DNA of 64,000 nt from an uncultured bacterium (GCA_963716985.1 OY970323.1:640001-704000), one strand, 5' to 3'; counted from the first letter of the stretch, positions 14,406-34,505 are shown. Notes: generated by a model from the sequence alone, not told the origin. Program-made: numbers and translations.

Positions 14406-14417
14406 ATCACGTATTAA

Positions 14418-14500
14418 GGGGGCGTCGCATAGCGGCAATTGCAAGGGACTGTAAATCCCTCGGTCTATGACCTCCGTTGGTTCGAGTCCAACCGCCCCCA
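14418..14500 (+). tRNA. tRNA-Tyr(GTA); integration target
   Basis: GGGGGCG...CGCCCCC acceptor stem, anticodon loop CTGTAAA, long variable arm GGTCTATGACC. Confidence 0.97.
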
Positions 14501-14628
14501 AAAAACCACCCCGCAAATGCGGGGTTTTTTGTGGACGGAGGAAGCCAATAATTTGGCTTCCGTTTGGGACTCGAAGGGAGGTACTCCGTCGACAAACAAG
14601 CGGTAGGCCCGGAGTCCAACCGCTTCCA
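14501..14628 (+). repeat. tRNA-trailer structured repeat, copy 1 (terminator hairpin, second hairpin, anti-T-loop segment, tRNA 3'-end relic)
   Basis: CCCCGC-AAAT-GCGGGG-TTTTTT; GGAAGCCAA-TAAT-TTGGCTTCC; GGGACTCGAA; ends GAGTCCAACCGCTTCCA. Confidence 0.75.
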
Positions 14629-14867
14629 ATTTTTATAGACAAAATTCTCTCAAAAAACCAAGCCCTAAAAAAACCCGAAAAGTGCGCTTCAAAATCCCGA
14701 ATGGGACACTGGTGGGACAGCAGTTATTACGAGTTTTCAAAGATAAAGGCGTTAAATGAATCGCACTTTTACTCAAAGGGTGCACATACTCATCTTATTC
14801 GGCTTGATAAATGGCTGCTGTGTCGATATATAAATAAATTGATCATTAGAAAGAATGTAGGGAATAA

Positions 14868-16586
14868 ATGACTACTCATGGTGTTCCAAGTCCAAATGAA
14901 CCATCTTTTTTGATAATTAATTCGTCTTCTCAAATAGATTTGTCCAGAGCACGTGTTGCCTACGAGGGCGCGATTAGCAACCCACGAGAGCGACATGCTG
15001 AAGTGGGTATTCTGTTACCCAATGGGAAGGTTCAATATGCCAGACTTGGCAAGAATGAAGAATATGGGCCGCATCGTGTAGGGTCGGTTACAAAGACATT
15101 CACGACATTTTTAGCCTTAAAACTTGCTAAAGATGGGGTATTGCCTCAAGGTTTGAAAACGCGTTGCGGCGACCTTCTTTCAAAGGAAATTCTTGCAAAA
15201 ATATTTGAAGATCCTGCGGCTGCGGAAAATATGACATTAGAGCAGCTTCTTTCCCATACAGCGGGTCTTGAATTAGATGATCATAGTCGCCAACAAGAAA
15301 TTCGTTCTTCTACAATGCATGAGCGTTTTCTACAGGAGGGCCAAGAAGGCCGTAAATTTAAACATACAAGTCAACCTGGAGATGGAATTGGTTCTTATAG
15401 CAATGCTGGGGTTGCGGTTGCGGGTTGGATGTTAGAAGTTGCATATAATAAATATAACGGAAAAGAGACGCCGGTCATTCCCTTTTCTCAGATCATGAAA
15501 AGAGAATTATTTGAAGGAGTTTTTGGATTGTCTGGGCCTTTTATTGGGCCTGCACCTTCTGAGGATATCATCCAGACTCCTGCCGGTGGTATGACATCAT
15601 CCATCGGAGATCTTATGAAAGTTGCCGCCCGTCTTCAGCAAGGAGAAGCTTCTCTTGAGCATTTCTTTGGAAGCGGTTGGCAAAGGGCCATGTTAACGCC
15701 CCGTGATCTTCTACAACATTATGGATTAGGATGCCATGCCAATGCTTCTTCTATTGAACATGCGGGTCTGACTCAAGAAAAATTTGGGGATGAGGCGCGG
15801 GACACTACTGCTTTGGTCGTTTTTCCTCTAGGTCCTGAAAAAGCTGGTTTAGCCGCGATGTGCGATTCAAGTGCACTTGGCCCCGCGCTACAAGAACAGA
15901 GATTTCTCAACGCTTTGAAAAAAAGTGCTGGTATTTCACATATAGAAGAGCCAGAACCTATTTACGATTTGGATTTCTTTTGCCCAGAATCACCGAACGC
16001 TATTCTCTTCCACGGAGATGTTTATCTGATTACGGATGTAGATCCTTTCGCTCTAGTTCCTCCAGAGAGGATTATCTGTACTCGCAATGGGATGAAACAT
16101 GTGCTTGTCCGAGATGCTTCTATCGATAAAAAGGATATCCGTGGGTATCGAGATGAACATGGAAAACCATGGGTTGTCATTTCAAGGGAAGATGGGCGCA
16201 AAGCAATTTATAGCGATTATTGTTTGCTCACCGAAGTGGTAAAGACAGGGGATTTTGCCTTAGCACAACCGGATTTGGTTAGTGTTCAATCATTACAAGG
16301 AGAGTATCGGGATACTGAGACGTTAGGAGAACATCCAATTTATTTCTTTACTGAAAAAAATGGGCACCTTTACATGCGAGAGCGTAATGATAAAATTAGT
16401 TATCCTTGTCTATACATTCCGGACGATGTGGGTGGAGGAGGAGCATGGGTAGTTAGCAATCCAGATGGTCGAAAGATCAAATTTCGATTTCCTAAAAATC
16501 CAGATAGCGACTTCCTTGTAATCACAGATATTCTTATGGGTGTTCCTCAGTTCCCGCCGAAAAGTAAAAGAACTCGTCGCGTATAA
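14868..16586 (+). CDS. Serine hydrolase, beta-lactamase-related (class C-like) family, with C-terminal extension
   Basis: SxxK (GSVTKTF), LLSHTAGL and YSN (SYSNAG) motifs. Confidence 0.8.
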   Translation: MTTHGVPSPNEPSFLIINSSSQIDLSRARVAYEGAISNPRERHAEVGILLPNGKVQYARLGKNEEYGPHRVGSVTKTFTTFLALKLAKDGVLPQGLKTRCGDLLSKEILAKIFEDPAAAENMTLEQLLSHTAGLELDDHSRQQEIRSSTMHERFLQEGQEGRKFKHTSQPGDGIGSYSNAGVAVAGWMLEVAYNKYNGKETPVIPFSQIMKRELFEGVFGLSGPFIGPAPSEDIIQTPAGGMTSSIGDLMKVAARLQQGEASLEHFFGSGWQRAMLTPRDLLQHYGLGCHANASSIEHAGLTQEKFGDEARDTTALVVFPLGPEKAGLAAMCDSSALGPALQEQRFLNALKKSAGISHIEEPEPIYDLDFFCPESPNAILFHGDVYLITDVDPFALVPPERIICTRNGMKHVLVRDASIDKKDIRGYRDEHGKPWVVISREDGRKAIYSDYCLLTEVVKTGDFALAQPDLVSVQSLQGEYRDTETLGEHPIYFFTEKNGHLYMRERNDKISYPCLYIPDDVGGGGAWVVSNPDGRKIKFRFPKNPDSDFLVITDILMGVPQFPPKSKRTRRV

Positions 16587-16650
16587 TAGCCTCGAGAGTC
16601 CCTGAGTTGGTGCAATGTTAATGCTAGCAAAACTTTTGAAAAGTCTACAA

Positions 16651-17022
16651 TTATCTCGCAAGGGCAGCAATTGATGCACGGGATGGCGAATCACCAATCA
16701 TCGTGCTTCCATGTTCTTGATGAGAAGAAGGAACAATGGAAATATAGACATCCTGCCCTAAATCGTTTAGAAATCTCAATAAACGTTCCAGAGAAAAACT
16801 TTTTAGGTATCCTCTCAATAGCAAAGATACTTTAGGTTGATCGATTTTTAAGATTTTGGCTACTTTAGATTGAGTCAATTTCTTTTTCTTAATGATTTTA
16901 CTGATTTCCCAAGCAAGTTGTGATTTAGCAAGAGCTTTTTCTGGATTTGGAACACCTAAATCAGCAAAAACATTCCCAGAGCTTTCTTCATATTCAATAT
17001 CTTTATATTTTTTTTTCTTCAT
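16651..17022 (-). CDS. XRE-family HTH antitoxin (HigA-like)
   Basis: SSGNVFADLG...LTQSKVAKILKIDQPKVSLLLRG...FSLERL; downstream of a RelE-like gene. Confidence 0.88.
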   Translation of the reverse strand: MKKKKYKDIEYEESSGNVFADLGVPNPEKALAKSQLAWEISKIIKKKKLTQSKVAKILKIDQPKVSLLLRGYLKSFSLERLLRFLNDLGQDVYISIVPSSHQEHGSTMIGDSPSRASIAALAR

Positions 17023-17039
17023 AACTTCTCCTCATGAGA

Positions 17040-17390
17040 TTACTTCAAAAGAGCTCTCGCTTCTTTTAGGCGTTGTTTAATGATTTCTATTTCATGTCTT
17101 GGAGTAGCAATACCACATTTTGATTTTTTCTGGAAAACATGTAGTACAACCACAATTTCTTTAAATTCAACTGTATAAACAGCTCTGTATGTTCCGCTAG
17201 AATCATTTTCACGAATTTCCCAGATCTTAGCGCTGTCAAATCCTCTGAGTAATTTTGCCGATGGAGGAACTTCGCCTTTCTGCACGCCTAATAGTGCGTG
17301 GCCAACTGCTCTATGCACTCTGTCTGGAAATTCTTTTAAGTCAAAGCGACTTTGTCTTATCCATATGATGCGCTTCATATCGATATCCAA
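17040..17390 (-). CDS. RelE/ParE-family toxin (HigB / Gp49-like)
   Basis: WEIRENDSSGTYRAVY...VLHVFQKKS...TP; toxin-first order with an XRE antitoxin. Confidence 0.88.
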   Translation of the reverse strand: MDIDMKRIIWIRQSRFDLKEFPDRVHRAVGHALLGVQKGEVPPSAKLLRGFDSAKIWEIRENDSSGTYRAVYTVEFKEIVVVLHVFQKKSKCGIATPRHEIEIIKQRLKEARALLK

Positions 17391-17413
17391 AACTATCTCA
17401 ATTCACAATCAAT

Positions 17414-17431
17414 TATGCCTATATGGGCATA
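17414..17431. promoter_or_regulatory. Palindromic operator upstream of the HigBA-like pair
   Basis: TATGCCTATATGGGCATA is a near-perfect inverted repeat just upstream of the toxin start. Confidence 0.6.
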
Positions 17432-17467
17432 TTATTGCGAAAACAATTTTTGGACCATATGAATTTT

Positions 17468-17660
17468 TGGGACACTGGTGGGACAGCAATCCCTTGAAAC
17501 TACCAAAAACACCCAACAAGAAACAATAATTATTTTACCACAAGACGCTTGTTTTTAGATTGATAGGTATTGATTAGGGTTGATAGAGATTGGATTCCGA
17601 CTGACTGTAAATCCCTCGGTCTATGACCTCCGTTGGTTCGAGTCCAACCGCCCCCAAAAA
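17468..17660 (+). repeat. attR-like site type A (arm motif, ~115-bp arm, tRNA-Tyr 3' half)
   Basis: tRNA identity starts at the anticodon loop; the ~135 nt upstream aligns with 31616-31750. Confidence 0.85.
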
Positions 17661-17789
17661 TAAAACCCGCAAAATGCGGGTTTTTTTATTTTGGGGGCGA
17701 GCAAGCCAATAGTTTGGCTTGCGTGTTGAGACTCGAAGTGAGGAGCTTTGCGACGAACTGGCGGGATTCCCGGAGTCCAACCGCCCCCA
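17657..17789 (+). repeat. tRNA-trailer structured repeat, copy 2
   Basis: CCCGCAAAATGCGGG hairpin; TTGGGGGCG (antisense to the acceptor strand); GCAAGCCAA...TTGGCTTGC hairpin; GTTGAGACTCGAA; ends GAGTCCAACCGCCCCCA. Confidence 0.8.
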
Positions 17790-18210
17790 AATCTCATAGA
17801 CAAAAAATGAACGAAAAAAGATAAAGAAAGAGGGCATGTAAGGAGCTGGGCTCTCTAATTTGTCCAACCCCCTGTTCAACCTTTTTCGGACAACGGTAAG
17901 TTCTGCTCATGACTTTTTATTTCCAACAAATCTTAGATGAGGGCACTTCCAACCCCATCGTAGCTCGCACTCATGTTCAGTGGAGTGAGTTGCTGAAACT
18001 GTGTCGGCTCGAAAAAGAAAAGAAAGACGATCTACGCAGTATTTTTTTTGACATAACGAAGGCGATCCTTGCTGCAAACAAGGAGGCAATCCCACTTATT
18101 GAGGAGTTACGATCTATAGATGGTGATCCCGTTGCGCATGGCCTAATTTGGGAACCGCATAAGCGCGCTATCCCATCCGCACTCAAGTTAGATAATGGTA
18201 AGCGTCTAAT

Positions 18211-18312
18211 CTAGTGCTCTGCCATTCTTTAATTTTAGGATAAATTGACTTGAGTTTATGCCGACCGTTGCCAAACTTATAATCCTAAATTTTAACTATG
18301 ACAGAGCACTAG
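18211..18312 (+). mobile_element. 102-bp MITE (CTAG-flanked), copy 1, inside the IS66 left TIR
   Basis: CTAGTGCTCTGCCAT...ATGACAGAGCACTAG with ~27-bp imperfect TIRs; identical to 25416-25517. Confidence 0.9.
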
Positions 18313-18371
18313 CCATCTTTTTTGTTTTCCTTCGTCATGGCACTCTGGTTTTTCTTAACCAAAGGAGTGTT

Positions 18372-18686
18372 ATGCCAAGACCTTTCCCAGAAGAAAAAAG
18401 ACGCATCTGGCAAGAAAAAGTGCAAACGCAACGAATTAGCGGATTAAGCATGGCGCGTTGGTGTCGTGAGCAGCAGGTAAATTACAATTCTTTCCTGTAT
18501 TGGGATAAGCGCTTCCCTGAAAAATCTCAGATAACACGCGACTCTTTTCAAGAGCTCTATGAAGAAACTAAGACGGACCCAGGCGTTGCTATCGAATGTC
18601 AGGGAATGAAAGTTGTTCTATTAAAATCATTCGACCCAGTCGTTTTGGCTCAATGTCTACAAGTTCTCAAGGCACTGCCATGCTAA
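18372..18686 (+). CDS. tnpA: IS66 accessory protein TnpA
   Basis: W...QRISGLSMARWCREQQVNYNSFLYW HTH-like segment; AGGAG RBS. Confidence 0.88.
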   Translation: MPRPFPEEKRRIWQEKVQTQRISGLSMARWCREQQVNYNSFLYWDKRFPEKSQITRDSFQELYEETKTDPGVAIECQGMKVVLLKSFDPVVLAQCLQVLKALPC

Positions 18687-19009
18687 GTCTGCCTGCAAAC
18701 GCCCGCCTGTTTTTGTGTCGCGCGCCTGTCAGTATGCGCAAGAGCTTTGAAGGTCTGAGCATTCTCGTCGAACAATTGTTCCCCGGAGAGCTCTTGTCCG
18801 GAGCTCTTTTTATTTTTCTAAGCCGACGCAAGGATCATATGAAGGTTCTCTACTGGGATGGTGATGGGTTTGTCATTTTTTATAAGCGCTTGGAAAAAGG
18901 TTCTTTTATTCCTCGGGAAGGAATGACATCAACGCTGCCAAGACGTGAATTTTTGATGCTTTTGGAAGGAGTCGTTCCTAAACGATTACAACCTCGGTTT
19001 TCTCTATGA
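18680..19009 (+). CDS. tnpB: IS66 accessory protein TnpB
   Basis: PVSMRKSFEGL, FIFLSRRKD and KVLYWDGDGF...KRLEKGSF motifs. Confidence 0.93.
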   Translation: MLSLPANARLFLCRAPVSMRKSFEGLSILVEQLFPGELLSGALFIFLSRRKDHMKVLYWDGDGFVIFYKRLEKGSFIPREGMTSTLPRREFLMLLEGVVPKRLQPRFSL

Positions 19010-19075
19010 AAATAATTCGACTTTTCGTGCATTTTTCTCTTCTTTTTTTAAAGGGTTTTTGCTATCATTTTCTCT

Positions 19076-20614
19076 ATGAAAACAACACAAATTCTAGATC
19101 CTGCACAACTTCAAAACCAGATCGAAATTCTGCGAGTTGAAAATCTCGATTTGTGCAATACAGTGGCTTATCTCACACAACAACTCGACTGGTTCAAGCG
19201 CCAAATCTTCGGTAAAAAATCAGAGCGCATTATCTCAGATCTCAATGGAGAACAGCTACTGCTTGAAGGTCTCGATGCAAAAGATCTGCAGAGCAAAGAA
19301 GAAACTCAAACAGTCCCTGCTCATCAACGTCGTAAACCTAAGCGCAATGGCCAAGATGCGATCACTTTGGATCCCAACCTTCCCGTTAAAACCATTGTTC
19401 TCGATGTTCCCGAAGAGCAAAAAGTCTGTCAGGAAACAGGAACTCCTCTCGTCAAGATCGGTGAAGAGGTTACTCACAAATTAGCTCACGAGCCGGGGAG
19501 CTATTATATCAAAGAAACCATCCGTCCCAAATATGCCCATCCTCAAAAACCTGAAGACGGCGTTCTGACAGCCTTGTTACCCGACAGCATACTCTCTAAA
19601 TGCCAAGCTGATGACAGTCTTCTCGCAGAAATTGTTACCCAAAAATTCGTTGATCATCTCCCTCTGTATCGCATCACCGAAATACTGGGTCGTCAAGGGG
19701 TTGGCATCAGCCGTAAGCTTCTCTCCCAATGGGTGATTCGCTGCGGTATGGCTCTCAAACCCCTCTATGAAGTCATGGTTTGCCAGATTCTTGAGAGCGA
19801 AAATGTTTTCATCGATGAAAGCCCAGTCAAATTACAAGCAAAAGACCAGTGCGATACAGCCTATATGTGGGTGATTGTCGGAGGAATCTCTTCAAATCCT
19901 GCCTACAGGGTCTATGATTTTCGAACGAACCGCCGTCATGAGAACGTCCTCGATATTCTTCAGGGATATCGCGGGTTTTTGCACTCAGATAAATATGGCG
20001 CCTACCAACGGTTGGCCGAGAAGAAGGTGATCACATGGTGTCCTTGTTGGAGCCATATTCGAAGAAAATTCTTCGATGCTGAATCGGGAGATTTACCATT
20101 TCGCGATTGGGTTCTTCGAAAAATCCGATATCTCTTCATGTTGGAGAAAGTCGCCTGGGCCCGGACATCTGAAGAGCGCCTGCAGATCCGCCAAGAAAAA
20201 GAAATTCCAATTATCGATGAGTTGATCGAGAAGATCAAAACACGACTTATGGACGGGAAGCTCTTGCCCAAATCAAAATTTCGCGAGGCGCTTGGGTATT
20301 TTTGCGGCCTGATTCCCTATTTAAAAAATTACACCAAGCACGCTTTTGCTCGTCTTGATAATAATGTAGCCGAAAGGGCCGTTCGTCCTCTCGCTATTGG
20401 CCGAAAAAACTGGCTCTTTTTCGGGAGTGAAGATGGCGGCGAAGCCGCTGCAATTTTACTCTCATTAGTACAAACTTGCCGAGGGTTGCAGATAAATCCA
20501 AGAGAATATCTAGAAGATGTGTTCCGGAGACTGATAGGGCACGCCGCTCAGAAGCTCGAGGAACTCTTGCCTGATCGATGGTTTGCCGCTCGTCAACAGT
20601 CGAAAAAGCAATAG
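19076..20614 (+). CDS. tnpC: IS66 transposase TnpC
   Basis: FGKKSER, KFVDHLPLYR, IDESPV, SDKYGAY, CWSHIRRKF and DNNVAERAVRPLAIGRKNWLF motifs. Confidence 0.97.
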   Translation: MKTTQILDPAQLQNQIEILRVENLDLCNTVAYLTQQLDWFKRQIFGKKSERIISDLNGEQLLLEGLDAKDLQSKEETQTVPAHQRRKPKRNGQDAITLDPNLPVKTIVLDVPEEQKVCQETGTPLVKIGEEVTHKLAHEPGSYYIKETIRPKYAHPQKPEDGVLTALLPDSILSKCQADDSLLAEIVTQKFVDHLPLYRITEILGRQGVGISRKLLSQWVIRCGMALKPLYEVMVCQILESENVFIDESPVKLQAKDQCDTAYMWVIVGGISSNPAYRVYDFRTNRRHENVLDILQGYRGFLHSDKYGAYQRLAEKKVITWCPCWSHIRRKFFDAESGDLPFRDWVLRKIRYLFMLEKVAWARTSEERLQIRQEKEIPIIDELIEKIKTRLMDGKLLPKSKFREALGYFCGLIPYLKNYTKHAFARLDNNVAERAVRPLAIGRKNWLFFGSEDGGEAAAILLSLVQTCRGLQINPREYLEDVFRRLIGHAAQKLEELLPDRWFAARQQSKKQ

Positions 20615-20638
20615 CTGATCTTCAATGATCAGCTATTG
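20609..20638. terminator. Hairpin between convergent tnpC and the second tnpA
   Basis: CAATAGCTGATC-TTCAAT-GATCAGCTATTG, a 12-bp perfect stem. Confidence 0.6.
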
Positions 20639-20676
20639 GCTCTATTCATCTTTTCAATCCTGGCTTTTCACAACTA

Positions 20677-20985
20677 CTAACATTGGGTTTTTCGCAGTGC
20701 TGATAAGCAATTTTTCAAGATGGCAAGATCGAAGCATTCATCGAGATGAATGCGAACGCCCCGATATTCGATGGAGACTCCGGGTGTCGTAGGTGCATTA
20801 GGTTTCTTGCAAGACGATCGGCGTATCGAAGTTTTTGAGGAAAGGCAATCTTTCCAATAAACAAATGTACTATGAGCAATTTGATGTTTTCGACACCAGC
20901 TTGTAGCATTAAGACCGCTGTTTCTTTGTTGGCGAATGTTTTCTGTCCATTCGGCTAGTTTTTCTGATGAAATAGGTTCGAACAT
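20677..20985 (-). CDS. Second, inverted IS66 TnpA-like protein
   Basis: QRNSGLNATSWCRKHQIAHSTFVYW...PGVSIEYRG...FDLAILKNCLSALRKTQC aligns along its length with the 18372-18686 protein; AAGGAG RBS. Confidence 0.82.
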   Translation of the reverse strand: MFEPISSEKLAEWTENIRQQRNSGLNATSWCRKHQIAHSTFVYWKDCLSSKTSIRRSSCKKPNAPTTPGVSIEYRGVRIHLDECFDLAILKNCLSALRKTQC

Positions 20986-21541
20986 AGAGACTCCTTGGTT
21001 TAAAAAGACAAAGAGAGCCATGACTCAGAAATAGGAAAAAGATGGGTAGATTAGACGGTTACAGATAATGTGGGAGTATTTTTGAAGTATGCTCATGAGT
21101 GTCTCAGGTGGTTAGCACAAGCATTATCCATATTTTTTGGCACAGGCTGGCAGGAAGCAAAGTTTAAGCCGATCTTGGAATATGTAAAAAAAGAGCAAGA
21201 GAAAGTTCAAGAAGATTGGCTTTTAGTGGAACTATTGCAACGAGATGTTACTTGGCTGGAGGAAATTCGGGACTTACGGAACGTCGAGGACCATAAATTG
21301 TACAAGCGTGAAAAAAAGGATTCGTTTTTCGTAAACTACACTCTTTCTAAGGACGGGGAACTGGTTCGGCCAAAACTATACGATGGAAAAGAGGTGCTTG
21401 CTTTTTTGACGGTTGCGGTTGAACGGCTTTTTCTCTTTAGTGAGCTACTGATAGTTTCCACGATAGAGATATATCTTTCCGAGCCTATAACGATTGAAGA
21501 AATTCCCGTTGAGAAGAGAAAAAAAGAATGCCCAAAACGCT

Positions 21542-22900: not shown

Positions 22901-22921
22901 AGATTTTTTCTCAAAATAAGT

Positions 22922-22969
22922 ACCCGGAAGATAACCCGGAAGCTACCCGGAAGTCAAGAACTTCCGGGT
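22922..22969. repeat. Three direct ACCCGGAAG repeats plus one inverted copy
   Basis: Copies at 22922, 22934 and 22945; inverted CTTCCGGGT at 22961-22969. Confidence 0.85.
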
Positions 22970-25136: not shown

Positions 25137-25224
25137 AGAGCCGTGTACGGACCCGTACGCATGGTTCTGTGAGAGGACGGAGCCCAAAGAGGGCTCCTCC
25201 TACTCGGCCCTCAGGGCAATCGCA

Positions 25225-25410: not shown

Positions 25411-25415
25411 AGCCA

Positions 25416-25517
25416 CTAGTGCTCTGCCATTCTTTAATTTTAGGATAAATTGACTTGAGTTTATGCCGACCGTTGCCAAACTTATAATCCTAAATTTTAA
25501 CTATGACAGAGCACTAG
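25416..25517 (+). mobile_element. 102-bp MITE, copy 2
   Basis: Identical to 18211-18312; CTAG at both ends. Confidence 0.9.
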
Positions 25518-25532
25518 TGCCACTTCGGTGGA

Positions 25533-26343: not shown

Positions 26344-26375
26344 TGCTTCCTCTGTAGATCCAAGACATAGCTCTT

Positions 26376-27228
26376 TTATGACTTGGGTAGCTTACCAGAT
26401 TCTACAATTAGTTTTTTCTCTTCTGATTTTACGCGGCGTTCGAGTTTTTTGAGGTCTTCTTCTGGAGGAAGATTTTCTGGTTTGATACCGCGCTGTCCGA
26501 GCATAGAGCGGACGCTTTCATTATTTTGAACATGCTCATTTGCTATAGCCGTTTCTCCATGTAAATCATCCTGCGATACATTGTGATTAGTCATTTCTGT
26601 CGCTAAATTTTTTGCGGCGATAGTCAGTGTAGGTAAAAAATCTGCTAACGGGCGACACTGTGTAATCCCATATTTGTTCTTCATGGTCTGCGTGCAATGA
26701 CCTCCAAAAAGAGCCTGATCGCCCTTAGAGCGAATTCGTCCAAAGCCAGGCTCGTCTACGCCGCGCTCAAATATTTTGAGAAAGAGTTTTTTCAGCCTCC
26801 CTCAGTTTTTCTCTGGTCTCTAATCTGGCTTGCAAGAGCATGCGACTTTCGATCAATTCCTGTTTGCGTGTTTGAATGGCAAAGTAGCTCTGGGCAAAAG
26901 CGATGGGTTCTTTGCGAGAGTCTCCGTTTTGAGCGATCAGATAGCAGGCATAGCGGGTTAACATGAAGTCTTCAATGGCCCGTTCTGCTCCCTTGCCGAG
27001 ACTGATCATTTTCCTGACGCCACGAAAATGATCGTTCGGATCGCAGCCAGTTGTTTTACAAGACTCTATGGCGCGCATAATCGTGGTGAGAAAGTTTTCC
27101 CACTTCGCATAACCCAATGGCTCTTGCAAGTCTCTAGCAAACCAAAATTCAATGCTTTCTTCGGGAAGCATTTGTGCTAGACTGTCAAAATGACTTTGCA
27201 ACTTTGTAATGATCTCGTTGTTAAACAT
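26376..27228 (-). pseudogene. dinD: DNA damage-inducible protein D, frameshifted
   Basis: EFWFARDLQ, LTRYACYLIAQNGD, AFAQSYFA; frameshift at SQNI(Y)ERGVD (~26769); then RSKGDQALFGG...RPLADFLPT...PENLPPEED. Confidence 0.88.
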
Positions 27229-27289
27229 GGCAATGACCTGTTGGAATAAAATTTTTTGAAGAAATCATAGCGGAAAGAGACAAAACTCT

Positions 27290-27362
27290 CCAATCAAAAG
27301 TTCTGAATTCGTCCAACCGCCCCCAATAAAAAAAGGCCCCGCAAAAGCGTTTTTTTATTTTT
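27290..27362 (+). repeat. att-like site type B (recombinase tail + tRNA-Tyr 3' 15-mer) and truncated trailer
   Basis: CAAAAGTTCTGAATTC-GTCCAACCGCCCCCA; the minus strand reads WGRLDEFRTFDW. Confidence 0.8.
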
Positions 27363-27418
27363 CAGATGCCACCAACGCAGAAGGGGGTATCTGAACTGTT
27401 ACCGAATAGCTTGAAGGA

Positions 27419-28504
27419 TTAGAATTCTTTTCCGAGCAATAAAAGCATGGTGACATCGTCTACTAGACCTGGCTGATAGAGATTCAGCGTTCTATGCTGT
27501 ATTTTTGGGGATGAGAAGTCAATTTTTTTCAAGTCCACGTAAAATGTTTCACTCTGGGTGGGCTGGAGAAAATATTTTAAATTTTTATTATCCCTAATAG
27601 CGATCCACCAAGTGGGAAATGATTTTTCGTTGGGATTAGTGGGATCATAAGGAGAACTAAGGGATCCCGGTGGTTCCACTACGGTGTCAATCATCGAAAA
27701 AACAGCAGCGATGGCCTTGGCTGTGTTAGAAACATTATCCTGCGGTAGAGTTTTAAGAAAGGCAGCCAACCGCACAAATCTTGATTCACTATCAACATCT
27801 CCCGGAAGAGGCAGAAGATTGGGGTTGCAATCTGTAACGGGAAAAACGGGAGGGTTGAAATAGCAGTAATGAGCTAAATTTGCAACCTGATCGGAATACT
27901 TGGGTTCATTCGTCGTAACAGCTGGACCATTAGGTGGACCAATAGGACGGATAATCGGGGTGGGCGGTGAGGTGAATTCAATAAGTGCTGAATCGCCGGT
28001 GGCGTCATGCAGTGTTACGTGCACAGGCAAAACGAAATAATCGATGACATCTCCAAAGATGTTAAGGGTTGCTATTGCAGACACAGCTTCCGCAACCGTT
28101 GCAAAATTATCCAGAATGTAGCGCGACAAATAACTTACGGCGAGTACAGGGTTTCCTGCTGCAGGTAATGGATAAGTTGCACCTTCGAACCACAACGTGG
28201 CAACAGACAATCCTTTTTCGTTTATCCCATCAACCACAGCAAGAGGTTGAATAGTGGCGCCGCTTACGACTACACTTCCATAGCGCGATACCCACTGCAG
28301 AGGTGGAAGAGAAGGGTGAGCAGGATCAGAGGGAGACGTGTTGCTAAGTCCCCTTGGATTCAACACAATATTCGTGGGAGGTTGGAATGAAAGATCTAAG
28401 GTTCTCGCAGAAACGACAACATTGTTATTAGCAATGGTGACCTCAGAGCAGGCAAATAGCTGAAAATCTGCAAAAAAAAGTAACCCAAAACAAAGGAACT
28501 TCAT
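27419..28504 (-). CDS. Choloylglycine hydrolase / penicillin V acylase family (Ntn hydrolase), probably exported; start uncertain
   Basis: Signal-like MKFLCFGLLFFADFQLFA followed by the nucleophile CSEV; ARTLD, DGINEKGL, HDATGDS, TNEP and LPGDVDSESRF motifs. Confidence 0.88.
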   Translation of the reverse strand: MKFLCFGLLFFADFQLFACSEVTIANNNVVVSARTLDLSFQPPTNIVLNPRGLSNTSPSDPAHPSLPPLQWVSRYGSVVVSGATIQPLAVVDGINEKGLSVATLWFEGATYPLPAAGNPVLAVSYLSRYILDNFATVAEAVSAIATLNIFGDVIDYFVLPVHVTLHDATGDSALIEFTSPPTPIIRPIGPPNGPAVTTNEPKYSDQVANLAHYCYFNPPVFPVTDCNPNLLPLPGDVDSESRFVRLAAFLKTLPQDNVSNTAKAIAAVFSMIDTVVEPPGSLSSPYDPTNPNEKSFPTWWIAIRDNKNLKYFLQPTQSETFYVDLKKIDFSSPKIQHRTLNLYQPGLVDDVTMLLLLGKEF

Positions 28505-28530
28505 ATTCCGAAATAAGTTGTACATATTAC

Positions 28531-29283
28531 TCACCATGTATGCCAAATCAGTGCAAGTGTGAATTGATTATTTGAAGGCTGAAGTTTTGCTGTTGTCGAT
28601 GAAACAAACGAGGTGTAGGTATTCCTAAATGACTGGTAGCTTGTGTGAGTGAATTCCGCTCGTAAACTAAGGCGCCAGTAAACAGCTTCTTCAAAACCAA
28701 ATCCATAGGAAAAGCCATTAGCATAGTGATCAAAAGTCGATTGGAGAAAAGGCGTTCCATTAGGAGCATCTAAAAGCGATTCATTTTCTTTTTCTTTGAA
28801 ACGCGCTCGAACAAAACCTAGTCGGAGATAGATCAATGAACGATCATTCACTTTATATCCTGATAGAAGGCTTACTCCATAACTAAAATCAGTAGATGTT
28901 TTAGTGTGATATGTAAATTCCCCTAATGGCTGAAAAATAGCAGTGCTTATTTTTTCATCTGCGCCGGTTAAATTGCCAAAAAGTTCAACGCCTAAGTAAC
29001 CTCGTTCTTTAATAGAGTGGCCATAACCCACAAATAGGGTGCCCAGGAACCCATCAGGGTTGACGAAGGCTTTTTCACGAAATAACAAATCGCCTAAAGT
29101 TGTTGCTTGGACATTCCTTTGAACGCTATACCAGCTATAACCGCCTCCAATTCCTAAATAAAATCCATCGCTTAAACTCAGAGTTTTTTTAGAGCTGCAA
29201 GAGGGAGCGTTCTTTTCTAGGTCATCAGCAAAACATGCCGATGAGAGGAATAGCACGGCTGTAATGAAAGAGAAGCGTGGCAT
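28531..29283 (-). CDS. Outer-membrane beta-barrel protein
   Basis: Signal peptide, GFYLGIGGGYS, alternating beta-strand pattern, GFGFEEAV...LSLRAEF and a terminal aromatic residue. Confidence 0.8.
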   Translation of the reverse strand: MPRFSFITAVLFLSSACFADDLEKNAPSCSSKKTLSLSDGFYLGIGGGYSWYSVQRNVQATTLGDLLFREKAFVNPDGFLGTLFVGYGHSIKERGYLGVELFGNLTGADEKISTAIFQPLGEFTYHTKTSTDFSYGVSLLSGYKVNDRSLIYLRLGFVRARFKEKENESLLDAPNGTPFLQSTFDHYANGFSYGFGFEEAVYWRLSLRAEFTHTSYQSFRNTYTSFVSSTTAKLQPSNNQFTLALIWHTW

Positions 29284-29450
29284 AATTTTTTTCACTAATT
29301 CTCGAATTTTCAATATTTTATCGGTTCAGCTCCATTTCTCGGTACTTTTTTCTAAATAAATTTCAAGAAAACAGGAATACTTCCTTACTTTATCAGATGA
29401 AGCGGATTCCCGGTTGAAGGAAAAATCCTAAAGATTTCCAACAGTTTCTG

Positions 29451-29621
29451 CCAAGCAAAAGTTCTGAATGCGTCCAACCGCCCCCAATAAAAAATTACCC
29501 CACATTTCGCGGGGCTTTTTATTGGGGGCGAGCAGGACAACTGCTTGGCTTGCGTGTTGAGACTCGAAGTGAAGCGCCATGTAGGGCGCGAACCGGCGGG
29601 ATTCCCTGAGTTCAATCATCC
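29451..29621 (+). repeat. att-like site type B plus tRNA-trailer structured repeat
   Basis: CAAAAGTTCTGAATGC-GTCCAACCGCCCCCA (minus: WGRLDAFRTFAW), then a hairpin, TTGGGGGCG, TTGGCTTGCGTGTTGAGACTCGAAGTGA and GGCGGGATTCCC. Confidence 0.8.
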
Positions 29622-29952
29622 GCAAATTTATCTATGGAAAATACCCCGGAAAATATACCTTGAAAAACTCAAAAGATTTTGTTAGATTTATTATCTATTC
29701 TTGGAGATTTTTTTATGAGGCTTAATGTTGACTTTTCTTGGAATAACAAAAAGAATAAAGGGCAAGTCGTTATTGTTTATGAAAATCGTATGTCCTTAAA
29801 AAATTATGGCAGATCCGAGCTTCCCATCCTTTGCTACATGGAGAAAGTCCTTGAACATTTGGCCTTTTTGCCATGACTTTTTAAGGATGTCCTTCATTTC
29901 GGCTAAGAGATTGCAAATTGCTCATCACTTCAATTTCAACTTTCCTCCTTTT

Positions 29953-30279
29953 TTAACCGCAGCAATGAACGAGCTTCGCAACTGTCTTTATCGTTGGGTT
30001 CTTGCTTTTCATAGTGTGATAAAGAGTGGACCTGGGCATTTCTGCTTCTTTTGCTAAATGTACCTTGTTAAGAGCCTGAAAATGAGCAGAGATAACTTCC
30101 ATAGCGCCTTCAGGATCATTTTCTTTTAAGCATTCCCAAAAGGCTTGAGCAATGAGTTTTTCATTTAAGAGAGTCTTAAAAGGGTTATGCTTAGCTAACT
30201 TTATCCCTTTTTTAAGGCGAAGTTTCGACGTATTTGCCGAGAATCTTTTTCGCTTGTGAAATGTCTTTACTTTGCCCAT
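29953..30279 (-). CDS. Addiction-module antidote (HTH) protein
   Basis: LAKEAEMPRSTLYHTMKSKNPTIKTVAKLV HTH; overlaps the toxin gene. Confidence 0.82.
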   Translation of the reverse strand: MGKVKTFHKRKRFSANTSKLRLKKGIKLAKHNPFKTLLNEKLIAQAFWECLKENDPEGAMEVISAHFQALNKVHLAKEAEMPRSTLYHTMKSKNPTIKTVAKLVHCCG

Positions 30280-30511
30280 TTTTGTTTCCTCCTAGAAGAA
30301 GTAAAATATTGTATTCAGCGATGTGCGCATAATAGATATGCCTTCCATTTGCCCACTTTAACTCCCATACATGATCGGTTAAGCGTTTGCAAGTCCCAAA
30401 ATATCCATCGCAGGAGATGTGAAGGAGGCGAACCTCTGCTTGCAGTTTCGGTTTTAGAGGTTGCTCGCTTAGCCATTCTTCAAATTCTGGTGTTTTTAGG
30501 AGAGCGTACAT
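30212..30511 (-). CDS. RelE/ParE-like addiction-module toxin
   Basis: TPEFEEWL...GYFGTCKRL...VWELKWANG...LLLGGNKNGQSKDISQAK. Confidence 0.82.
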   Translation of the reverse strand: MYALLKTPEFEEWLSEQPLKPKLQAEVRLLHISCDGYFGTCKRLTDHVWELKWANGRHIYYAHIAEYNILLLLGGNKNGQSKDISQAKKILGKYVETSP

Positions 30512-30537
30512 TGCAAATCAAAATGATTTTTCTTTAT

Positions 30538-30555
30538 TGTACAATTAATTGGACA
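30538..30555. promoter_or_regulatory. Palindromic operator upstream of the TA pair
   Basis: TGTACAATTAATTGGACA is a near-perfect inverted repeat. Confidence 0.55.
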
Positions 30556-30558
30556 TTT

Positions 30559-30672
30559 TTAAAAGGTCAAATTTTCTGCTTTTGGGATCATCATATTTTT
30601 GATTGATTCCGCGGGGGTGGGAATATTTTCAGGAAAAGTACCGCCAATTTCTTCAATTGCTGAACGCGCTGG
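30559..30672 (-). pseudogene. Relic of a DinD-like C-terminus
   Basis: RSAIEEIGGTFPENIPTPAESIK resembles the DinD tail pattern IxELGGTMPExLPTP. Confidence 0.5.
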
Positions 30673-30763
30673 GAAACTTGGAGTTTGGGTTACGTTTGAG
30701 GCTCGAAGAGGGGAGCTCCGTCGACCAACTGGCGGGAAGATTTCCGGAGTCTGACCATCCCCA
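30672..30763 (+). repeat. Degenerate tRNA-trailer structured repeat
   Basis: CGTTTGAGGCTCGAAGAGGGGAGCTCCGTCGACCAACTGGCGGGAAGATTTCCGGAGTCTGACCATCCCCA aligns with copies 1 and 2. Confidence 0.7.
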
Positions 30764-30915
30764 GCTTCAATAGCAACAACAACCGGCAATTTTTCATAAT
30801 TTCGTCATTTGCTATCCACTCCGAGGGAATCAAGCCACTCGATTTTTCGATTCTTTCTGGTTCAGCGAAGGCGCTCTCTTTCGCGGCCTGTTTGGTAAAT
30901 GATTCTCTCCAATAT

Positions 30916-31299
30916 TCATCCCAAGCCGTTAGAAAAAAATGCAGAAATAGCATCTTTTTTCGTTTTTCCCTCGGCGACTTTCAGAACAAGCTCTTCTAAG
31001 TCAGTTTCTTGATAATCAAACGGACAGTTGTTCATGGAAAGAAACATCAATGCAGACACAAGAGCGGTCCTTTTATTTCCATCGATAAAGGGATGATTTT
31101 GGCAGATATGAAAGAGATAAGCTCCCGCTTTATCGGGAAAGGTTCTGTGTAAGTATTGTCCATCAAAGGTGCTGAGCGGTTGCGAGATCGCAGAGAGCAG
31201 GAGATTATGGTCACGAAGGCCTGTTTTTCCTCCATAACGTTTAATCTGGTCTTCATGAATTTCTAGAACATCTTCCAGCGTTAGAAAGTAGATTTCCAT
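30916..31299 (-). CDS. doc: Death-on-curing (Fic/Doc) toxin
   Basis: HPFIDGNKRTA Fic/Doc motif; IHEDQIKRYGG...GLRD. Confidence 0.92.
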   Translation of the reverse strand: MEIYFLTLEDVLEIHEDQIKRYGGKTGLRDHNLLLSAISQPLSTFDGQYLHRTFPDKAGAYLFHICQNHPFIDGNKRTALVSALMFLSMNNCPFDYQETDLEELVLKVAEGKTKKDAISAFFSNGLG

Positions 31300-31303
31300 A
31301 CTT

Positions 31304-31540
31304 TTACTCAGCTAGGCGTTTTAGAGTACGTCCATATTTCTTATTGATCTTCTTCAATGAAGTGGCAAAGTGGTGTTTTTGCGCTTTACTCTTCAGTGGG
31401 GTAATGATTATGGAAATGCCATCGGGTGTAGAAATTTGGAGTAGTGTCTCACTATCAATTCCTAGTAGATCAAGAATAGGTCGTTCAATGATAAGGGCGT
31501 AACTATTTCCGTGTTTGGTGAGTTTTTTAGTAACTGTCAT
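31304..31540 (-). CDS. AbrB/MazE-like antitoxin
   Basis: KKLTKHGNSYALII...Y..TLKRLAE; directly upstream of doc. Confidence 0.85.
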   Translation of the reverse strand: MTVTKKLTKHGNSYALIIERPILDLLGIDSETLLQISTPDGISIIITPLKSKAQKHHFATSLKKINKKYGRTLKRLAE

Positions 31541-31615
31541 GAAAGCCTCCTGATTATGTGCATACTTATGTATATACATTGTAGACACGGAGTGAATTCC
31601 TAGTCAACTATTTAA

Positions 31616-31891
31616 TGTGGCACTGGTGGGACAGCAATACCTCGAAGCTATCAAAAACACTCAACAGATAACAATAATTATTTTGCCACAAGATATTTGT
31701 TTTTAGGTTGATAAGCATTGAGAATGACTGTGGAAGATTGGATTTCGACTGACTGTAAATTCCTCGGTCTTCAGGCTTTCGTTGGTTCGAATCCTAAACG
31801 TAAGCCAACTACTTGGCTCACGTTTGAGACTCGAAGTGAAGCACCAGGCAGGGTGCGAGCTGGCGGGATTCCCGGAACCCAACAGCCTCCA
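31616..31891 (+). repeat. attR-like site type A (diverged) followed by a trailer repeat
   Basis: TGTGGCACTGGTGGGACAGCA, then an arm homologous to 17468-17602, then GACTGTAAATTCCTCGGTCTTCAGGCTTTCGTTGGTTCGAATCC, then AAGCCAACTACTTGGCT...TTTGAGACTCGAAGTGA...GGCGGGATTCCCGGAACCCAAC. Confidence 0.8.
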
Positions 31892-32007
31892 TAAATAAAA
31901 TGGCTCCGTTCTTTTGATTCCTCCATAGATCCTTGTGCTTTTAAAATTGAAAAATTTCTTCTTTTTTAATAGCAGGGGCTCTATTTGTAAAATTGACGAA
32001 GGTATAA

Positions 32008-32994
32008 ATGAAAAATATTTTCTTTCTTTTAGTGTTTTTTTCTTTTTCACTCTTTGCAAAGGAGGGAAAAAGAGAGTATCAAATCAACGATTGCCATTTG
32101 CATCTCGTCGATTTTTTACAACACGAGGGAAGCATTTTCTCTTTCGTGCAAAGTATGAATGAAATTGGCATTGATCATGTGATCGCCTTCGGCATTCCCT
32201 ACATAAAAAAGTGGGACAGCAGCGAACCGGAACAACCCTTCTATTACCTAGTTGATGACGCTCGCTGCTATTGGTACTCCTTAACCGATACAATCGTGGC
32301 TCAAGAGATTTTGAAACTTCCAAAAAAGGATCGTCAAAGATTTCATCCAATGATCTGTGGTTTCAATCCAACGGATCGTAATGCAATCGAACATGTAAAA
32401 AGAATGTTTGAGATGTTCCCCAATTTCTGGGAAGGCATTGGGGAGATCTTGACGCGACATGACGATCTCACTGCCCTTGTCTACGGAGAAACGGCTCGAG
32501 CCAATCATATGGCCTTAGATCCCATTTATGAGTTTGCGGCTGAAAAAGATCTTCCTGTTTTAATCCATAGCAATATCGGATCCGTTTGGAGACGTGAACC
32601 TATCTATTTGAATGAAATTGAAGAGGCTGTCAAAAAACATCCCAAAACCCGATTCGTCTGGTGTCATGCAGGTATCAGCCGCAGGATTCTTGTTCCCACT
32701 ATCATTCAGCATGTAAGACGTCTCCTTGCCACCTATCCCAATCTTTTCATTGATCTTTCTTGGATGCTCTATGATCTCTATCTGGTTAAAGATGGAAAAC
32801 CTGATGAACAATGGATCGCTCTTGAAGAAGAATTTCCCGATCGTTTTCTTATCGGATCAGATCAAGTGGGACACAATGAAGGATATAAGGAGACTTTGTT
32901 GAGATATTTTCTCATTCTCGACTCCCTCAAGCCCCGAACCGCGAAAAAAATTGCTCATGAGAATTTCTTAAAAATTTTGCCGAAAAAAAAGTGA
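32008..32994 (+). CDS. Amidohydrolase-family metal-dependent hydrolase with signal peptide
   Basis: DCHLH, GIGE, LPVLIHSN, WCHAG, IDLSW and RFLIGSD motifs. Confidence 0.85.
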   Translation: MKNIFFLLVFFSFSLFAKEGKREYQINDCHLHLVDFLQHEGSIFSFVQSMNEIGIDHVIAFGIPYIKKWDSSEPEQPFYYLVDDARCYWYSLTDTIVAQEILKLPKKDRQRFHPMICGFNPTDRNAIEHVKRMFEMFPNFWEGIGEILTRHDDLTALVYGETARANHMALDPIYEFAAEKDLPVLIHSNIGSVWRREPIYLNEIEEAVKKHPKTRFVWCHAGISRRILVPTIIQHVRRLLATYPNLFIDLSWMLYDLYLVKDGKPDEQWIALEEEFPDRFLIGSDQVGHNEGYKETLLRYFLILDSLKPRTAKKIAHENFLKILPKKK

Positions 32995-33093
32995 AAAAGC
33001 TCGTCAATTATTCCTCCGACTATTTCTAAAAACCATTTCTTGCTATAACTCTTTGTTTAACTTAAATTTACTGCGTAGGACAGGGACAAAAAT

Positions 33094-33720
33094 ATGAGCA
33101 ATAAAATCGCTATATACCTTGCGGGAAGTATCAAAAAAGGCCACGAAAGAGCCGATGAGTCTTTTTGGACAGATGAAGACATCCTTTTGTTAAAGAAAAG
33201 CCTAGCTGAATATGAAGTTTCTTTTCTAAATCCTGCCTTTCGATCCGATAATTTGTCTGATCAGCGTTCTGTGTTTGGCCGTGATATGACCCAGGTCTAT
33301 TGTAGCGATGTTGTTTTTGTTGATGCACGTGATCGGCGCGGCTTAGGTGTTGGAGCTGAGATGATGTGGGCTAAATTCCATAAAATTCCCATCGTCACTC
33401 TTGCTCCCAAGGATTCCCACTATAATAAAAGCAAGACGACACTCTTAGGAATGGTTGTGGAAAATTGGGTTCATCCGTTTGTAGCGTCATTAAGCGACGC
33501 AATCGTAGAGAATCTTATTGATGGAGCTGTATGTATTAGGCGCTTCATAGGTGGCTCTGTCCCTGAAGTGAGAGATATTGAATACATTGAATCCGCCATG
33601 CGCTATTATCGAGATAGTCAATTACCACATGACGGACCGATGAAAGCATTGTTAGAGGCTAACAATCAATTACACAAACGCGTTGCTAATCTAGAGAAGC
33701 GATGTGCTAAAAGAAGCTGA
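33094..33720 (+). CDS. Nucleoside 2-deoxyribosyltransferase-like protein
   Basis: IYLAGS, F.RD...V..SDVVFVD and G.G.GAEM.WA....IP pattern. Confidence 0.6.
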   Translation: MSNKIAIYLAGSIKKGHERADESFWTDEDILLLKKSLAEYEVSFLNPAFRSDNLSDQRSVFGRDMTQVYCSDVVFVDARDRRGLGVGAEMMWAKFHKIPIVTLAPKDSHYNKSKTTLLGMVVENWVHPFVASLSDAIVENLIDGAVCIRRFIGGSVPEVRDIEYIESAMRYYRDSQLPHDGPMKALLEANNQLHKRVANLEKRCAKRS

Positions 33721-33882
33721 TTATCAGAGAAAAAGTTCCCTATGGTGTGAAGAAGCTCCAGGGTTCTCTTCGGGGTCTTTTGTTGGAGAAGAAAAATATT
33801 GTCTCAGGCGCACCACGCATTCCGAAATGGAAGATGGCAGACAATGCTCTGAATCCGATCCTGGGATTGCCTCTTTTTTAGC

Positions 33883-34317
33883 CTAGTCAGCCAGCAGTTG
33901 ATTTGCCAAATCTTTGGCCAGCTTTCCATCAACTGCGCTGTTGAGTTTCATGACGCTCTTCATCACCAATCCTAAGTCTTTTTTTGTCTTGGCCCCGGAA
34001 TCGGCAATTGCCTGCACCACGATTTTTTTAGTTTCTTCTGGCGAAAGCGCTTTAGGTAAAAACTCTTGAACGATATCTAATTCCTTTTTTAGCTGTTCTG
34101 CGATCTCGGGTCGGCTACCGGCTTGATCTAGCGCTTCTTGAAGGTTGCCAAAATAAGTTTTGAACAGTTTTAAAACTTCTGAGTCGGGGAGGTTAGCGCG
34201 AGCATCAACAGCTAATATCTTTGATTTTAGCATGCGCAGGGTGTTGAGTCTAATCTGGTCTTGACTTCGTATCGCTTCTTTGATCCCAAGATTGATTTTT
34301 TCAATCAGTGTCATCAT
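33883..34317 (-). CDS. GatB/YqeY domain protein
   Basis: RLNTLRMLKS, E...V.EFLPK.LS.EE, KDLGLVMK and DGKL motifs. Confidence 0.88.
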   Translation of the reverse strand: MMTLIEKINLGIKEAIRSQDQIRLNTLRMLKSKILAVDARANLPDSEVLKLFKTYFGNLQEALDQAGSRPEIAEQLKKELDIVQEFLPKALSPEETKKIVVQAIADSGAKTKKDLGLVMKSVMKLNSAVDGKLAKDLANQLLAD

Positions 34318-34388
34318 GCATCACTCTCACTTTGATTTCTTTTGCACTTACATCTAAAAAAATAGCTTAATTCAGTTTTTGATTTTTC

Positions 34389-34472
34389 CCAATCAAAAGT
34401 TCTCTGATCGCGTCAACGAGATGAGTCGCTACGTCGACGAATGGGCGGGATTTCCGGAGTTCAACGCCGGCA
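34389..34472 (+). repeat. Degenerate att type B / trailer relic
   Basis: CCAATCAAAAGTTCTCTGATCGCGTCAAC (minus: LVDAIR, frameshift, TFDWEK), then CGTCGACGAATGGGCGGGATTTCCGGAGTTCAAC. Confidence 0.6.
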
Positions 34473-34505
34473 ATTTCTAGGCAACGTTACCGGTTTGAAG
34501 CACTG

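Follow-up and report, generated by a model that had tools for sequence, protein, structure and literature searches.

The DNA downstream of the tRNA-Tyr gene at positions 14,418 to 34,472 of a 64,000-nucleotide stretch (GCA_963716985.1 OY970323.1:640001-704000, hereafter the window, all positions being counted from its first letter) probably represents a stack of eroded integrative elements, i.e. a tandem array of the type known from cis-mobilisable elements (CIMEs). The window comprises bases 640,001-704,000 of a closed 2.07-Mb genome whose owner is an environmental chlamydia. Below, G000 denotes this genome, G001 that of its congener and further G numbers those of relatives, while L numbers designate loci. 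The first-pass annotation of the window had left open whether at least two recombinase families integrated serially with subsequent loss of the integrases or whether an integron-like platform is loaded in trans. It is the former proposal that the data support, and both families possess intact examples at tRNA-Tyr in relatives.

The array begins at an intact tRNA-Tyr gene and is subdivided by copies of its 3' end. Ten such relics had been claimed near 14612, 17603, 17773, 25297, 27311, 29472, 30747, 31751, 31875 and 34410-34465, and all of them are present there on the + strand; a further, degenerate one lies at 29610, and ARAGORN also calls a second, partial tRNA-Tyr at 17575-17657. With up to two mismatches allowed, the 15-nt tRNA tail occurs seven times on the + strand and not at all on the - strand of the 20-kb region, compared to 0.04 copies expected from the rest of the genome. 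The relics divide the interval from 14.5 to 34.5 kb into small gene blocks. As far as 29472 they show 0-2 mismatches to the tRNA tail and past this point 4-6, which makes the far end look older. A further junction suspected at 33840-33880 has 8 mismatches to the tail and was not confirmed. The three junction types initially distinguished (anticodon-loop, T-loop and a trailer of ~130 nt) are all genuine and are located as follows.

14332-14406: tRNA-Thr, just upstream of tRNA-Tyr (ARAGORN)
14418..14500, + strand: tRNA-Tyr(GTA), intact, the shared target (ARAGORN, Rfam)
17603 and 31751, + strand: anticodon-type junctions, each with an arm repeat of 11-bp period 134 bp upstream
25297, 27311 and 29472, damaged at 34388, + strand: T-loop-type junctions
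25294..25401, - strand: C-terminal remnant of a large serine recombinase (LSR), 36 codons, one stop
After 14500, 17656 and 29486, damaged at 30668, 31796 and 34420, + strand: trailers

The array is covered in 30, 29 and 29 of 30 bins by contigs of at least 99% identity from three public runs, which stem from three studies, and so is not an assembly artefact.

The anticodon junctions are assigned, by comparison with relatives, to the right ends of tyrosine-integrase elements. Upstream of each such junction lies a direct repeat of 11-bp period, of which several classes exist; in the class found in the window, 27 of 28 distinct right ends have the arm 133-134 bp from the junction. An intact tRNA-Tyr adjoins five of the 30 closest integrase loci. 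Four intact tyrosine-integrase elements of 8.0-17.8 kb are closed at an anticodon junction, three of them bearing the same arm class at both ends while the right end of the fourth is unreadable. At L197, tRNA-Tyr is followed by the window's exact arm and then by the start of an integrase. Right arms of the window's class are flanked by a toxin-antitoxin (TA) pair (six kinds) in 12 of 28 cases and by a Fic, Schlafen or YhcG gene in five more. The viral collection yielded no confirmed match to the tyrosine integrase.

The T-loop junctions, in turn, are assigned to the right ends of LSR elements. The 16 bases of the arm which precedes the junction are conserved to 87-100% per position among 152 distinct junction strings, 13 of these 16 bases having been selected by the search itself. 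The exact 25-base arm pattern retrieves 86 stretches in the genome collection, and a 20-base pattern is found in 32 of 201 genomes of the order, compared to one for the reversed control. Among 80 loci listed, nearly all named records with the same junction motif are titled Chlamydiae. Chlamydial LSR genes, whose best NCBIfam match is CcrB, terminate by reading antisense into the tail of a tRNA or of the transfer-messenger RNA (tmRNA), the targets in relatives being tRNA-Tyr, tRNA-Met, tRNA-Asn and tmRNA. Of 21 LSR loci examined, 11 are closed by the arm 5.3-16.5 kb away and constitute intact LSR elements; eight show no arm within their stretch (mostly short contigs), and two of tRNA-Asn type gave weak matches only. 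In 9 of the 11 closed elements a DUF927, DUF3987/RepB-primase, AAA_25 or D5-type gene is situated near the LSR gene, with variable cargo rightward. Across the T-loop junction the arm continues the LSR reading frame as WGRLD-x-FRTF. An LSR on a viral contig (34% identical), which lacks a tRNA, ends in WGALWDVFRT, as would fit the excised form. The T-loop arm itself has no match in IMG/VR, where one distant LSR relative is present. Within the window, the LSR remnant runs antisense into the tRNA tail at 25297-25311 and matches the end of a relative's LSR (tblastn E 8.6e-10; hmmsearch E 2.8e-6).

Several further loci deserve mention. Elsewhere in G000, the same LSR arm precedes tmRNA-type tails at L064 (G000:C1:745000-762000), behind the tmRNA, and at the distant L067 (1738000-1748000). 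Displaced pieces of the tRNA-Tyr array lie far from any tRNA-Tyr: two T-loop junctions around DUF2608 and epimerase genes (G000:C1:1939636-1943846), and an arm with anticodon junction beside a Schlafen gene (G000:C1:1995500-1995670). L388 (G200:C7:29449-37103) is an intact LSR element with a tRNA-Met relic at its left and a tRNA-Tyr-type tail at its right end, which suggests relaxed target choice. Two genomes share, at 78%, a 1.58-kb single-gene unit enclosed by two T-loop junctions (L135 and L148), in which the LSR arm is fused to arm repeats of the tyrosine type. G155 harbours 14 T-loop junctions over six contigs (L102-L146), several of them in duplicated blocks of ~3 kb which hold a gene with ~105-bp tandem repeats. 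Active spreading was rejected for these, since the duplications are flanked by repeats and their ends do not follow attachment (att) sites.

A ladder of recombinase remnants, together with mismatched element ends, points to erosion in place. Searching 200 genomes with the LSR gave 126 matches, of which 25 at 31% identity or less were left out while the other 101 were merged to 90 loci. Eighteen of these extend over the protein, a few of them interrupted by stops or frameshifts; C-terminal tails make up 64, while seven loci are N-terminal and one is internal. The starts of the tails extend without gap from residue 62 to 485, although the six shortest may be nothing but the tRNA in reverse and the others are blurred by alignment drop-off. 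A census covered 75 units bounded by junctions, with a bias toward small units from short flanks and with a few of them entered twice. Of its 26 anticodon-type units four contain a full recombinase, of its 48 T-loop-type units one, and five more of the T-loop type contain a tail. Ends of different classes occur in one unit at L048, L109 and L155, and in empty units left and right arms are fused to each other (L161 and G230; the 211-bp unit at L161:446-657 has nothing between its arms). Among 29 tRNA-Tyr loci chosen by kinship alone, 15 have an arm, LSR tail or trailer directly after the gene, and no full recombinase is present within the stretches of these 29 loci (1.1-1.6 kb for 26, fewer than 600 bases for three).

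The first-pass annotation was right in finding neither an intact tyrosine nor an intact serine integrase in the array. In profile searches of all six frames there is no trace of a tyrosine integrase, and the LSR is represented by the one tail only. In the genome as a whole, 11 tyrosine-recombinase matches are present, none within or beside the array, and there is one small resolvase but no large serine recombinase (PF07508). Intact integrases with matching att sites, to be looked for elsewhere according to that annotation, are found in relatives, but not in this closed genome; as no matching enzyme is present, nothing in the array should be mobile in it now. The closest tyrosine integrases of G000 were considered as enzymes acting in trans and rejected: they reside at tRNA-Met, share 43% identity with the tRNA-Tyr type and have another arm and core, which makes their action on the tRNA-Tyr array unlikely. 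Their own array (G000:C1:863000-970100), which comprises five junctions of anticodon type along with GGACCA arm repeats and intact tyrosine integrases, is the same system as the tRNA-Tyr array, still armed.

We propose the following course of events. Two unrelated element families, as the intact relatives show, target tRNA-Tyr: tyrosine-integrase elements, which cross over in the anticodon loop, have their integrase beside the left end and bear arm repeats of 11-bp period at both ends, and LSR elements with crossover in the T-loop and an LSR gene reading back into the tRNA. Both carry an integration and primase/helicase core at the left and cargo toward the right end. Judging from the order of the units and the known behaviour of such elements, each arrival would restore the tRNA and shift older units to the right, or else enter a relic which still holds the target. 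Deletions, to which the remnant ladder and the mismatched ends testify, then strip the core and sometimes a whole junction, leaving the att arms with the nearest cargo, often a TA pair, open to invasion by insertion sequence (IS) elements and introns. Between arrivals, as the pattern of trailers shows, a separate gene-less insert of ~130 nt re-enters the tRNA tail. Finally, a later intact element might take the right end of an old remnant along on excision, thereby carrying its cargo to other genera.

The units of the window and their contents, from the tRNA outward, are these.

14629..17602, + strand: unit B, tyrosine-integrase type at both ends, without integrase
14703-14719: left arm repeat of unit B
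14868-16586, + strand: serine hydrolase of the beta-lactamase Pfam family
16651-17390, - strand: HigBA-like pair
17469-17485: right arm repeat of unit B
17603..17656, + strand: displaced 3' half of tRNA-Tyr with the anticodon-loop junction, attR of unit B
17790..25296, + strand: unit D, into which a 102-bp repeat, IS66 and a group II intron have inserted
18309..21063, + strand: IS66 element, a later insertion with several near-identical copies in the genome
21070-21594: HEPN-like remnant
21542-22900, - strand: Schlafen/AlbA-RecG-C gene
22975..25208, + strand: group II intron (Rfam), its reverse transcriptase frame (23622-24725) cut by a ~195-bp repeat
25276-25296: LSR-type right arm of unit D
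25312..27310, + strand: unit E, LSR type at both ends, with the LSR tail, a 102-bp repeat and two split genes
25533-26343, - strand: alpha/beta hydrolase, split
26376-27228, - strand: dinD, split
27290-27310: right arm of unit E
27311..29471, + strand: unit F, starting with a tRNA tail (27311-27325) and a trailer stub
27419-28546, - strand: gene of the choloylglycine hydrolase family
28531-29313, - strand: beta-barrel outer-membrane protein
29451-29471: LSR-type right arm of unit F
29625..30763, + strand: unit H, with a trailer remnant at 30668-30763
29953-30511, - strand: HI1419/HI1420-like TA pair
30764..31750, + strand: unit I, right arm repeat at 31617-31634
30916-31299 and 31304-31588, - strand: doc and phd
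31751..31891, + strand: damaged anticodon junction fused to trailer 5, with identical damage in the congener G001
31892..34473, + strand: oldest part of the array, with a damaged LSR-type arm at 34388 and a trailer remnant at 34420-34473
32008-32994, + strand: amidohydrolase
33094-33720, + strand: nucleoside-deoxyribosyltransferase-like gene
33883-34317, - strand: yqeY

The cargo genes named beforehand are confirmed, with the correction that the reading frames of dinD and of the alpha/beta hydrolase are split. At position 26225 within the split hydrolase, one conspecific contig and the G366 homologue have two extra bases, so that the interruption may be peculiar to the strain or due to an error in the sequence. 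Units B and E keep attL and attR of one system, while D, F, H and I lack or mix an end. Unit B does not possess the second, inverted arm pair found in intact elements; since in the intact elements L283 and L284 cargo is also present between left arm and integrase, it can be explained as left plus right cargo with the core gone. In unit H of G000 the arm and the anticodon junction are deleted, whereas the same TA pair keeps both in G001, G013 and G230. Later insertions account for ~5.2 of the 20 kb; they comprise IS66, the group II intron and two 102-bp repeats, each of which recurs in multiple copies across the genome. The non-coding 102-bp repeat (18211-18312 and 25416-25517; ~30 genome copies) and the likewise non-coding ~195-bp repeat (24703-24898; more than 10 copies) both behave like miniature insertion elements.

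The third junction type, the trailer, is gene-less. Trailers 1 to 3 of the window are located as follows.

14501..14628, + strand: trailer 1, a hairpin insert ending in a second tRNA tail (14614-14628), fold z -5.65
17657..17789, + strand: trailer 2, complete, with a perfect tRNA tail end (17775-17789), fold z -7.97
29472..29624, + strand: tRNA tail and trailer 3, with a degenerate tail end at 29610

Ten complete trailers measure 118-154 bp, and trailers fold much more stably than shuffled sequences (z -3.7 to -8.0). The first hairpin has the form of a terminator; in the inner hairpin five of nine pairs are changed on both sides, and hairpin lengths differ among aligned trailers. Each trailer contains an inverted copy of the host tRNA's T-arm, in the host's own variant and split by hairpins, and closes with a direct copy of the host tRNA tail. 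Hosts in G000 are tRNA-Tyr, -Leu and -Phe, with copies at G000:C1:63989 (tRNA-Leu relic), 325780 (tRNA-Leu(TAA)) and 429709 (tRNA-Phe). In the family tRNA-Met, -Ser, -Lys, -Arg, -Trp, -Asp and tmRNA are added, sometimes in tandem, amounting to at least 10 types of tRNA gene (tDNA). The strict pattern is confined to G000 among 251 genomes, while a looser DNA search finds trailers in 26 of 91 genomes of the family. Their presence behind many tRNA types indicates that trailers are independent of the cargo units, and, being gene-less, they must be moved or made by something else. GIY-YIG nucleases and Y1 transposases were considered as movers but find no support, since the matches in the genome do not lie within or beside any trailer. 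A small stand-alone GIY-YIG gene is located 6 kb beyond the array (40137-40397, - strand) with no adjacent tRNA repeat.

How far the remnants still take part in exchange is best judged from their distribution. Among 109 units, right ends (cargo plus arm) are common to different genomes in 13 pairs and left ends in three pairs, all within G155. The right-end cargo of integrase-free units is 65-79% identical to that of intact LSR elements. dinD with its right arm recurs in six other genomes at 76-92% protein identity, whereas core proteins of the same genomes reach 45-54% (TilS, four tested), 49-61% (solute symporter) and 60-67% (XerD, those tested). Unit E is matched in G366 at both ends, comprising the LSR tail, the hydrolase, the first bases of dinD and the arm. 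Its hydrolase shares 82% of nucleotides and 87% of residues with that of G366, compared to 77% protein identity to the congener, while core proteins agree with G366 at 53% and 61%. These comparisons indicate that right-end modules move between genera and that at least one LSR-less unit has probably done so; remnants may accordingly be re-exported. Co-excision with a later intact element would explain both the movement of modules and the bias toward right ends.

A possible, if doubtful, alternative is that the remnants are immobile altogether and that shared right ends go back to separate arrivals of related intact elements, each of which decayed on its own. Independent decay also predicts shared right ends and unshared left ends, and two intact elements, in G123 and G128, do have 1.4 kb of their right ends in common at 93%. 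Conspecific contigs show no variation at junctions, and the far unit is vertically inherited together with its damage; 31653-33737, including the damaged junction, is retained in G001 at 88.6%. In unit E and in its G366 counterpart alike, however, the LSR tail is joined directly to the stop of the hydrolase gene. A single deletion passed on by transfer accounts for this more simply, and cis-mobilisation of such remnants is described for other bacteria in the review PMC5704250.

The integron-like platform, on which small cassettes would circulate and be loaded at the tRNA by integrases of passing elements acting in trans, is unlikely and finds no support as principal explanation. Besides unit E, shared at both ends with G366 at an identity well above that of core proteins, and the conservation of dinD with its arm relative to TilS, it could draw on the recurrence of two-arm units which hold only a TA pair or one more gene (unit B of the window, G001, L196), on the TA pairs or single defence-type genes that flank 17 of 28 right arms, and on integrase-free units which precede intact elements in four genomes. 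However, the genome encodes no matching enzyme, and there is no platform integrase or promoter (33 promoter-like sites were found and 34.2 expected by chance) and no uniform cassette site; two unrelated recombination chemistries are mixed, the remnant ladder is continuous, ends are mismatched, and left ends are almost never common to genomes. A full-span LSR occurs in the same sample for only 5 of 32 genomes with a T-loop junction. Gain, loss and shuffling of cassettes at the exact junctions had been proposed as a test: the breakpoints between G001 and G000 in the far array, where G001 carries the hydrolase in place of yqeY, do not fall at recognisable att sites. The differing order in G000 and G013 is explained by separate arrivals. 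Nor did contigs of four runs reveal excision circles, precise deletions or any junction-precise join, an absence which at a depth of ~2-5 proves little; a single join of 14463 to 17773 was discarded as it carries another organism's tRNA letters. That the repeats arose by tRNA gene duplication with homologous recombination, or by misassembly, is highly improbable, being contradicted for anticodon and T-loop junctions by arms common across families and located at the ends of intact integrase-bearing elements, as well as by the coverage from independent runs, and possible solely for the trailer, which duplicates the tRNA tail, carries no gene and has no known enzyme.

A number of observations weigh against a stack of eroded elements as the full account. 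Not one of the 22 integrase-free anticodon-type units contains an integrase fragment, an outcome not readily expected from random erosion (one such fragment, N-terminal, is seen elsewhere, at L022), and the arm spacing of 133-134 bp, constant in 27 of 28 right ends, looks as if it were still constrained. None of the window's 15 cargo proteins has a high-identity counterpart in an intact LSR element (22 loci), the only matches being distant Schlafen genes at 26-27%, and no complete intact element with the window's exact arm sequence was recovered. G366 shares unit E over its whole length, with the LSR lacking, and small integrase-free units are often nearer to the tRNA than the intact element (G007, G176, G183, G368). 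It is conceivable, though we consider it rather unlikely, that the tRNA-Tyr and tmRNA arrays of Chlamydiales operate as a conveyor with no resident enzyme, in which units of 1-3 genes with minimal att arms at their borders are taken up and re-inserted by passing tyrosine-integrase and LSR elements and spread TA and stress modules among genera of intracellular bacteria, with the trailer, which copies the T-arm of the tRNA it enters, as third, wholly non-autonomous traveller.

Serial accretion and decay at tRNA-Tyr, our preferred reading, would explain how intracellular environmental chlamydiae gain TA pairs, nucleases and small hydrolases. The carriers would be two families of small elements that target tRNA genes and whose scars abound in the order. 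For a serine recombinase family targeting the T-loop of tRNA-Tyr, -Met, -Asn and tmRNA, intact enzymes and the precise att sites are now at hand, and such enzymes could become integration tools. If remnants can be re-mobilised, such arrays would amount to a slow gene-exchange platform without a dedicated integrase.

The RtT or tyrT-distal 178-bp repeats of E. coli resemble the trailer in being gene-less, structured repeats which follow a tRNA and end in a copy of its tail. The chlamydial trailer differs from them in its inverted, target-matched T-arm copy and its occurrence behind at least 10 tDNA types, and it matches no Rfam family, RtT included, up to an E value of 0.5. Integrons likewise present a row of short, TA-rich units of 1-3 genes in mostly one orientation. 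In contrast to them, the array has neither IntI, attI/attC nor a single cassette site, its sites being tRNA-derived att scars of two unrelated recombinases. A literature search, with most subscription papers outside its scope, retrieved no description of this chlamydial system, with miniature tRNA inserts, tRNA-targeting serine integrases and RtT included in the search; a modular tRNA-Gly island is known in Protochlamydia (PMC548262). Islander, according to the 2014 database paper (PMC4383910), restricted its count of tandems to those whose islands all possess an integrase of their own, and according to the same paper no serine integrase was known to use a tRNA gene as its target.

For the platform alternative, the first-pass annotation had envisaged an undescribed gene-capture system for Chlamydiota. 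The kind of arrangement, however, is already published: the array is made by a known process, the tandem accretion of elements and their decay to CIMEs. The closest counterpart is provided by the ssrA islands of Dehalococcoides (McMurdie et al. 2011, PMC3146451), described as tandem insertions at the T-loop with a CcrB-like recombinase on the reverse strand, 15 of 31 islands lacking the integration module. Both systems are stacked behind one tDNA, encode a CcrB-like reverse-strand recombinase of ~500-540 residues beside attL (DsiB in Dehalococcoides) and include many enzyme-less units. The reported 15-bp Dehalococcoides junction motif fits the 152 chlamydial junctions at 9-13 of 15 positions, 89 of them at 12 or more, a value reached by 62 of 200,000 random sites. 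The likeness of the chlamydial LSR to DsiB refers to the published description and the junction motif. Unlike the Dehalococcoides islands as described, the chlamydial elements target tRNA-Tyr (in relatives also tRNA-Met, tRNA-Asn and tmRNA) and share their array with a tyrosine-integrase family and a miniature insert; their remnants measure 0.3-4 kb, and primase/helicase genes replace the six-gene module, which together with its second small serine recombinase was not found by Pfam in 11 closed parents. The tycheposons and PICI-like elements (phage-inducible chromosomal islands) of Prochlorococcus, to the extent reported in 10.1101/2020.12.28.424599, similarly combine tRNA-targeting integrases, mostly tyrosine and some serine recombinases, with primase/helicase modules, and in their islands neighbours are separated by partial tRNAs while fragments of old elements remain. 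This comparison refers to gene content, and Pfam reveals no packaging or capsid genes in the chlamydial parents. With CIMEs (Pavlovic 2004, Bellanger 2011, reviewed in PMC5704250) the array has in common that integration genes are lost, that attL and attR are kept, here in units B and E, and that remnants are stacked with later arrivals at one site; the review also describes later elements entering the displaced gene end. In contrast to the CIMEs reviewed there, the chlamydial parents are not integrative and conjugative elements or relaxase-bearing integrative and mobilisable elements, and several units have lost or swapped one end. What is new compared to these systems is the identification of both element families with their att sites in Chlamydiales, mixed with a gene-less insert at one tRNA, together with indirect signs that remnants may be re-exported.

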